40,885 nt of DNA from a virus. The notes under the pieces were generated by a model. That model ran no database searches, was not told the origin of the DNA, and saw nothing but the letters and a program-made list of their open reading frames with translations. The stretch lies in UHGV virus genome UHGV-0869933; one strand, 5' to 3'. Position 1 is the first letter of the stretch, and each line of letters starts with the position of its first letter. This document shows, piece after piece, positions 35,042 to 36,364 of the stretch. Both the position numbers and the translations under genes were made by a program.

Positions 35042-36364
35042 TTACCCCTGCCGCCCGATAACCACGACCTTTCCGCCCCCGCCTTCATCACGGGTGCTGA
35101 TGTCCTGGGATATACGGCGGGAGCCAACCAGCATTTCCCCGTAAGGCACCGGCATCGGGTTCCCCTGGGCAATCATGTTATCCAGCGAGGAAAAGTACGT
35201 GTTCTGTCTGCCGTTATCCGTTGCGCGGTAATCCGGTGTTTTTGCCTTCGGGGCCAGCATCTGGGCCACTCCACCCAGTATCATGCTGGCACCCAGTGAA
35301 AACAGCATCGTGGTGGCAGAAAAACCACCGGCACTCAGGGCTGTACCCCATAACGCCATCGAGCCTCCGGCCGTGAAGAAAGAGCCCACGATGGCTGCCG
35401 CCCCCAGCACAATCTGCAGTCCACCCTTTCCGGCCCCGGCCAGTCGCGGCACAATGTGGATGACCGTTCCCTCACCCAGCTGTTCGTGAAGACGGGCATA
35501 CACCGCCTCCGGTGCCGTGTCATCACCGGCAATACGTATCTGGTACCAGCCTTCGTTCATCTGACGGCGAAAGCCCGGCATCTGCATCGACAGGGCGCGA
35601 ATGGCTTCCGCTGCCGTGTTCACATACAGGCTGAGGCGGCGGCCAAATCGTTGCAAATCCCCGTGAAGGCAGATGCGTGCCAGTGGCGGTGACGCCAGAC
35701 AGAATGCGTTCGTCGTTGTCCATTTTTCGGAATACCTCTCCCGTTTACTCAGTTGTTCAGGAATATGGTGAAGCAGTTCACCGTTGCCGCAGTAAATGGC
35801 GGCATGATTAGCCACCGATGCGCCGAAGCAGCACAGCAGGATATCGCCCGGCTGTGCAGAGGACAGGGGCACCCGGTAAAAGCCGGTGACCGCCATATTG
35901 TCCAGGTACAGGTTCTGGCCGTTGCGCCACCAGTCATCCTCGCGATGAAAATCCGGCATTTCAGTCCCCGCCAGATGATAAGCATCCCGGAACAGCGTGT
36001 AACAGTCCGTCACCCCGTGCTCAAAGCGCCGTCCTGTCAGATGTGGCACACAGCGGAATTTGTGAATGTCACCCCGGCAGACCAGCCACCAGGGCAGTGC
36101 GCTTTTTATCTGCAGCCGCCGGTCAGCCTCGCTCAGCCAGGGCAGACCACCGGGATGACTGTGGACCAGCGCCACAATCTCCCCCTGCATCTCTGCCCGC
36201 AGCCAGTCTTCCGGTGCGATACGAAAATACGCCTCCGGCTCTGCGGAAATATTCACACAAGGGATATACCGCTCCCCCTCCGGCGTGCTTATCACGAAGC
36301 CGCACGACTCCGCAGGCGCACACCGCCGGGCATGCGCCAGAATCGCTGATTCAGTCTGTGTCAT
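35042..36364 (-). CDS. K-I: Tail tip assembly proteins K (MPN/JAB + NlpC/P60) and I, fused in-frame in this sequence
   Basis: Starts MTQTESAILAHARRC (K; HSHPGG JAB-like and Cys/His NlpC/P60 motifs), runs without a stop into the I-like body (LASPPLARICLHGDLQRFGRR ... hydrophobic Gly-rich C-terminus). The I-type ATG at 35723 is out of frame because of one extra G. Confidence 0.7.
   Translation of the reverse strand: MTQTESAILAHARRCAPAESCGFVISTPEGERYIPCVNISAEPEAYFRIAPEDWLRAEMQGEIVALVHSHPGGLPWLSEADRRLQIKSALPWWLVCRGDIHKFRCVPHLTGRRFEHGVTDCYTLFRDAYHLAGTEMPDFHREDDWWRNGQNLYLDNMAVTGFYRVPLSSAQPGDILLCCFGASVANHAAIYCGNGELLHHIPEQLSKRERYSEKWTTTNAFCLASPPLARICLHGDLQRFGRRLSLYVNTAAEAIRALSMQMPGFRRQMNEGWYQIRIAGDDTAPEAVYARLHEQLGEGTVIHIVPRLAGAGKGGLQIVLGAAAIVGSFFTAGGSMALWGTALSAGGFSATTMLFSLGASMILGGVAQMLAPKAKTPDYRATDNGRQNTYFSSLDNMIAQGNPMPVPYGEMLVGSRRISQDISTRDEGGGGKVVVIGRQG

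Follow-up and report, generated by a model that had tools for sequence, protein, structure and literature searches.

A single-base insertion joins the lambda-type tail genes K and I into one reading frame in a phage contig and is probably an indel error

Does a reading frame that runs from the tail assembly gene K of a lambda-type phage straight into gene I stand for a real fusion protein, for a damaged gene pair or for a fault in the DNA as it was written down? The question is raised by the viral genome UHGV-0869933, a stretch of 40,885 nt that is referred to here as the window. We infer, with a probability of about 0.65, that the fusion of K and I stems from an indel error of technical origin in a draft contig, and we set out below the fused frame, the base that creates it, the arrangement from which it departs and the evidence that bears on its cause.

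As written, the frame opens on the minus strand with the K start codon ATG at 36364..36362 (MTQTESAILAH...) and stays open down to the I stop at 35042, giving a product of 440 aa (35042..36364) that consists of K residues 1-215, a junction codon ACA (Thr216) and I residues 3-226. The K-derived part occupies 35720..36364 (K codons 1-215) and the I-derived part 35042..35716, both on the minus strand. At 35723..35721 the I-type ATG lies in a different frame from the I body, and the ORF that it opens is an orphan of 66 codons (35523..35723, minus strand; MDNDERILSG...). Neither a separate 247-aa K with its own stop 103 nt beyond the I start nor an in-frame start codon for I inside K is present as written, the frame leaving K after Trp215. 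A preliminary description of this stretch had reported both the K frame continuing without a stop into the I body and the out-of-frame ATG at 35723, and both observations were borne out. The fused frame is a deterministic fact of the given sequence, and chance is no issue in reading it.

Three domains were recognized in the 440-aa frame, each exceeding its curated Pfam gathering score: Prok-JAB (PF14464) at residues 3-105 (58.1 bits, cut-off 25), NLPC_P60 (PF00877) at residues 111-217 (40.2 bits, cut-off 23) and Lambda_tail_I (PF06805) at residues 229-311 (59.1 bits, cut-off 23.8), the last spanning profile positions 3-83 of 83. In the translation, the JAMM motif H68-x-H70-x7-S78-x2-D81 (HSHPGGLPWLSEAD) and the NlpC/P60 residue Cys121 (GVTDCY) are intact in the K part, and all of the K catalytic motifs lie upstream of the junction. 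What the fused product lacks of a normal K is its last 32 residues (QRRTHSVWRHRHWHASAFTGICNDLAAASACM). The I-derived part (I residues 3-226) has the domain layout of a gpI-type protein, with the ubiquitin-like Lambda_tail_I domain followed by a Gly-rich linker (AGAGKGG) and a hydrophobic C-terminal domain, whose counterpart in lambda makes up the tail-tip plug (PMC1779556, PMC10721106).

We located the base responsible by alignment. The closest E. coli and phage matches to 35042-36364 are 1322 nt long, compared to 1323 nt in the window, and two methods, blastn against the relatives L001, L002, L004 and L130/L131 and a MAFFT alignment that took in lambda, agreed in placing the extra base at 35719 (minus-strand feature; T on the plus strand, A on the coding strand). 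It is the first base of the junction codon ACA and nucleotide 5 of gene I, directly after ATGG. The coding strand of the window reads ATGGACAACG where the relatives and lambda read ATGGCAACG; over a longer context the junction is GAAAAATGGACAACGACG in the window versus GAAAAATGGCAACGACG in the relatives, and MAFFT showed lambda without a base at the position equivalent to 35719 (AAATGG-CAGCGACG). A gap was found opposite 35719 in every one of 61 relatives in one alignment and in 111 of 111 in another. The insertion does not extend a homopolymer, the added A standing between G and C on the coding strand, and it lies deep within the contig, away from the poor ends.

The preliminary description was right that a single-base insertion beside the I start fuses K and I but wrong about which base had been inserted. 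It held that an extra G had turned an ATGA overlap into ATGGA, K having formerly ended at the I start and I having begun MTTTNAF. Deleting a G does formally restore a 226-aa I ORF and a TGA in the K frame. However, ATGGCAACG is found in all aligned relatives and in lambda, K extends for 32 further codons in 120 of 123 related places, no relative has either the resulting 214-aa K or the MTTTNAF start, and the MATTNAF form of I matches exactly a protein present on at least 1000 contigs. We rejected repair by deletion of the G, which is contradicted by the alignments and by the 214-aa K, and we give this account next to no credence. The ancestral state shown by the alignments is a lambda-type out-of-frame overlap of 103 nt, and not the overlap of K stop and I start in ATGA that had been proposed.

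That ancestral layout was read from 123 related places, comprising IMG/VR contigs and E. coli loci with the ancestral 22-mer. Their most frequent full-length architecture is a K of 247 aa with an I of 226 aa (MATTNAF...), and K and I overlap by 103 nt in 120 of the 123. An overlap of the same size is present in lambda (NC_001416), where K lies at 14276-14875 and I at 14773-15444. The corresponding segment of the window, from the I ATG (35723..35721) to the K stop TGA (35622..35620), measures 104 nt (35620..35723, minus strand), and the old K frame past the insertion is still open and undamaged down to this TGA, 32 codons after Trp215. When 35719 was deleted in silico, K became 247 aa and I 226 aa. 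The repaired K is identical to a catalogued protein found on 2 contigs, which are themselves without the extra base, and it falls in a 90%-identity cluster with 6975 members; the repaired I is likewise an exact catalogued protein, carried by at least 1000 contigs. Once repaired, the locus belongs with the lambda K/I (TAPK/TAPI) pair of tail-assembly genes.

The start of I is called differently in public annotation. RefSeq/PGAP lets I in the relatives start at a GTG overlapping the K stop (GTGA), for a length of 193 aa; such calls at L001 6001-6582, L002 3001-3582 and L004 9443-10024 are equivalent to 35042-35623 in the window. With the Pfam Lambda_tail_I domain beginning at I residue 15, this GTG falls within it. 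The 226-aa I that starts from the ATG within K, as in lambda, probably has the true start.

We searched for the insertion in other genomes. The 71-mer spanning the junction was aligned at 6102 places in 1865 complete E. coli genomes, none of which was identical, the best agreeing at 70 of 71 positions with one gap. A 23-mer containing the insertion had no exact match in 185,579 species-representative genomes, IMG/VR and the JGI metagenome contigs, while the ancestral 22-mer, used as a positive control, matched at least 120 viral contigs. Protein look-up returned no record of the exact 440-aa product. The preliminary description had called for comparison with closely related genomes, in which a fusion common to viable phages would point to a natural variant; no relative has the fusion, and its absence supports a lesion or an error over a natural variant.

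Entries in which K and I are fused do exist in public data. Using a word-indexed search of 5.8 billion proteins, we found three-domain K-I entries (P0001, P0002, P0009, P0015, P0023 and others), every one of them a singleton with a junction of its own and several with multiple frame switches; the normal 247-aa K, by contrast, forms clusters of hundreds to thousands of proteins. The ATGGACAACG junction of the window occurs in none of these singleton fused gene calls. A full HMMER scan of 1.84 billion cluster representatives gave no full-length K-I fusion among the best 150 matches, and the four that straddle the junction (P0180, P0187, P0224 and P0226) alternate between K frame, I frame and nonsense. 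Further singleton chimeras join K to I, L, the tape measure or the portal (e.g. P0044, P0091 and P0100), often with several frame switches. The public singleton "fusions" look like frameshift-laden assemblies and not like real architectures, and a conserved natural family of K-I fusions was discarded as a candidate after the searches yielded singleton or frameshift-ridden entries only. These entries call for caution in surveys of domain architecture; a plausible three-domain "fusion" can arise from any indel within or close to the 103-nt overlap by which K is shifted into the I frame.

Programmed -1 frameshifting from K into I was also considered, the lambda G-T site being a known example of such ribosomal frameshifting. 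It was rejected: the junction TCC GAA AAA TGG contains no X XXY YYZ heptamer, A AAA TGG failing the YYZ requirement, and the K and I frames are already joined at the DNA level.

The fused frame is not the only disrupted tail gene in the window. Gene J (31226..34698, minus strand) is split into ORFs of 789 and 368 aa by a one-base deletion near 32349, where one A has been lost (TAATAAT to TATAAT), which agrees with the J frameshift already noted in the preliminary description. Adding one A restored a J of 1157 aa, and both halves are otherwise intact. All 52 loci that span the site have one base more than the window, and the deletion had no identical counterpart among 8768 E. coli places. The position of the gap in J varies between alignments; it was caught by direct inspection and by a rescan with a spread window.

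To compare the kinds of change, we defined a private difference as a window position unlike every aligned relative, counted where at least 10 relatives cover it; the 9658 nt scanned in this way all belong to the tail region. The window has three private one-base indels, at 35719, 32349 and 40771 (the last a C4 to C3 deletion in gene T), and no private substitutions. In the same scan with nine relatives as queries, there were no private indels and 41 private substitutions. The hypergeometric chance of this division between indels and substitutions is 1 in 13,244, or 1 in 903 when the indel in the end region is left out. Divergence in this gene pool is dominated by substitutions, whereas the private changes of the window are indels only, a pattern that favours error over mutation. 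Another private one-base loss, A7 to A6 at the intergenic position 13321, is shared by none of 46 E. coli records. A deletion at 13903 (A4 to A3), located at the 3' end of a small ORF (13887-14240), was initially counted as private and then dropped when one of 524 E. coli records proved to have it (NZ_CP103559, annotated there as a 117-aa ORF). Rather than an error, this is an allele that occurs naturally but rarely, and it shows that what counts as private depends on the sampling of relatives.

The ends of the window bear on its quality as a record. Each end is an inverted fold-back: bases 1-93 are the reverse complement of 735-827 (98.9%), and the last 50 nt (40836-40885) align to the relatives in the inverted direction, displaced by about 260 nt. 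The last 220 nt contain a cluster (40672-40826) of five homopolymer deletions (A7 to A5, C4 to C3 twice, A5 to A3 and T3 to T2) and one single-base insertion outside a homopolymer, and gene T is frameshifted there. The window has the look of a complete draft contig whose ends are chimeric and of low quality.

The preliminary description had named systematic indel errors and a decaying tail module as the possible causes, and these are the right two to weigh; the pattern of private differences favours the former. Under our preferred reading, the phage would carry an ordinary lambda-type K (JAB plus NlpC/P60 peptidase, 247 aa) and an ordinary I (ubiquitin-like plus tail-tip plug domain, 226 aa), with I starting inside K and the two overlapping by 103 nt in different frames. 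An extra base in this overlap would move the I body into the K frame, so that K codons 1-215 would be read directly into I codon 3, the last 32 codons of K would be lost and the I ATG would be stranded out of frame. The extra base would be a consensus indel error, together with the one-base deletions in J and T, and the true DNA probably has ATGGCAACG here, with K and I encoded normally as separate proteins. Some observations do not sit easily with an error: 35719 is not in a homopolymer, unlike most other indels of the contig, and is deep inside it; the 13903 difference, once taken for private, turned out to be natural; and finished E. coli genomes commonly contain prophage genes with genuine frameshifts, several of them marked by PGAP in the relatives. 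The same frequency of frameshifted prophage genes in finished genomes speaks for the competing possibility that a defective phage or prophage has undergone a real frameshift mutation very recently, as do the presence of the base in the given sequence outside a homopolymer, the disruption of K/I and also of its neighbour J, which are essential tail-tip genes, and the independent recurrence of K-I frame fusions across public assemblies. We consider such a lesion possible but distinctly less likely than an error. Against it stand the three private indels and no private substitutions in the window, compared to none and 41 in the nine relatives, and the independent signs of technical error in the contig. 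Moreover, the displaced frame of the K tail is otherwise intact, as are the two halves of J, and the repaired proteins are identical to circulating ones, so that a mutation would have to be extremely recent.

A third reading is that the insertion is a viable natural variant that makes a single JAB-NlpC/P60-Ubl-plug polyprotein. By analogy with the processing of ubiquitin fusion precursors, the JAB peptidase might cut after the Gly-rich AGAGKGG at the end of the Ubl and release the C-terminal I plug for the tail tip. Support for such a scheme comes from the literature: Iyer et al. 2006 (PMC1779556) predicted that the JAB domain of K cuts I directly behind the Ubl domain, after its C-terminal glycine, and noted occasional fusions of TAPI to TAPK/JAB in a prophage. 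In the lambda virion only gpI residues ~134-223 are resolved, as a trimeric plug under the C-terminus of the tape measure, and gpK is absent (PMC10721106, PMC12617516). The position of all K catalytic motifs upstream of the junction is also compatible with it. However, cleavage of I by K is so far a prediction, the junction is unique to the window, fusion-like matches are all singletons with differing junctions, and among the best 150 of 1.84 billion representatives no full-length fusion appeared, the entries across the junction being ridden with frameshifts. The adjoining J is frameshifted as well, which makes the tail module as written non-functional. We regard a natural polyprotein variant as very improbable, and that the insertion is real and the 440-aa polyprotein is functional and processed by its own JAB as slightly more improbable still. 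If it were true and tolerated, it would provide a natural test of the 2006 idea that gpK processes gpI as a deubiquitinase does a ubiquitin fusion, an idea to which the present evidence lends little support.

Returning to the technical error, which we prefer, the fused frame in the file is almost certainly not a biological feature. Were the lesion real, gpI could not start at its own ATG, and the next start in frame, a GTG, is I codon 34 and falls within the Pfam domain; gpK, lacking its C-terminal 32 residues, would have all of I attached. Together with the J frameshift, this would abolish tail-tip assembly: gpI would not be made as a separate protein, gpK would be altered at its C-terminus and gpJ would be truncated. 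Such an element could excise and perhaps package DNA but would be without infectious tails. The contig is unfit to support a claim that K and I form a fusion protein, that the tail module is decaying or that the phage is tail-less before its two or three one-base indels have been checked against reads.

The wider window has the organization of a lambdoid genome. Its reverse complement follows the lambda virion order, H-M-L-K-I-J-lom-tail fibre, then attP-int-xis-exo, the immunity region, Q and lysis. The integrase gene lies at 24926-26056 on the plus strand. The integrase side meets the tail-fibre side in an attP-like junction at ~26100-26220, whose core of ~120 bp is identical to the 3' end of ompW. 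These modules also make up a prophage of E. coli NZ_CM136155 that sits at ompW. The contig may represent an excised or circular form, the junction between tandem prophages or an assembly join through the att repeat. Rfam matches at the gathering score (6650-6838, 7114-7307, 7574-7730, 13600-13775 and 21498-21549) comprise two copies of the STnc100 sRNA, two tRNAs, the sok antitoxin RNA, which adjoins hokD in relatives, and DicF.

The I-J spacer (34699-35041) had no match in Rfam. It contains a near-consensus sigma-70 promoter (TTCACA-16-TATAAT, 34904-34931) on the plus strand, antisense to the tail genes, and, ~70-100 nt downstream of this promoter, a terminator hairpin with a run of seven T (34997-35036); of 23 related loci, 22 keep both elements. 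There is also a second, GC-rich hairpin, at ~34800-34835. Judged from these sequence signals, the spacer is a candidate for encoding a small RNA inside the tail operon. This candidate might correspond to PasB, a published sRNA said to lie within a structural operon of a phage.

Known systems offer several points of comparison. The stf gene of laboratory lambda is, like the window, a case of a frameshift in a lambdoid tail gene (PMC10721106). It differs in that stf is dispensable and its mutation is real and fixed in the laboratory strain; K, I and J, unlike stf, are required for tail assembly, and the change in the window is unshared. The singleton K-I calls in public data resemble the window in that the K frame enters the I frame within or near the 103-nt overlap. 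In the TAPK/TAPI systems (PMC1779556), as in the window, a K with JAB and NlpC/P60 domains adjoins an I with an N-terminal Ubl, a Gly-rich linker and a C-terminal domain. The fusions described among them differ from that of the window, which is a private one-base frameshift in a standard two-gene allele and not a conserved architecture, and those cases may be frameshift artefacts themselves. The closest parallel is the K/I pair of lambda itself. The lambda I-J spacer is 60 nt long, compared to 343 nt in the window, and the window has the extra base after ATGG through which the two genes are read as one 440-codon ORF. The gene order L-K-I-J and the domains (JAB plus NlpC/P60 in K, Lambda_tail_I in I) are the same in both, and once 35719 is removed the window matches lambda in its 103-nt out-of-frame overlap, with the same start context, AAATGGCA.
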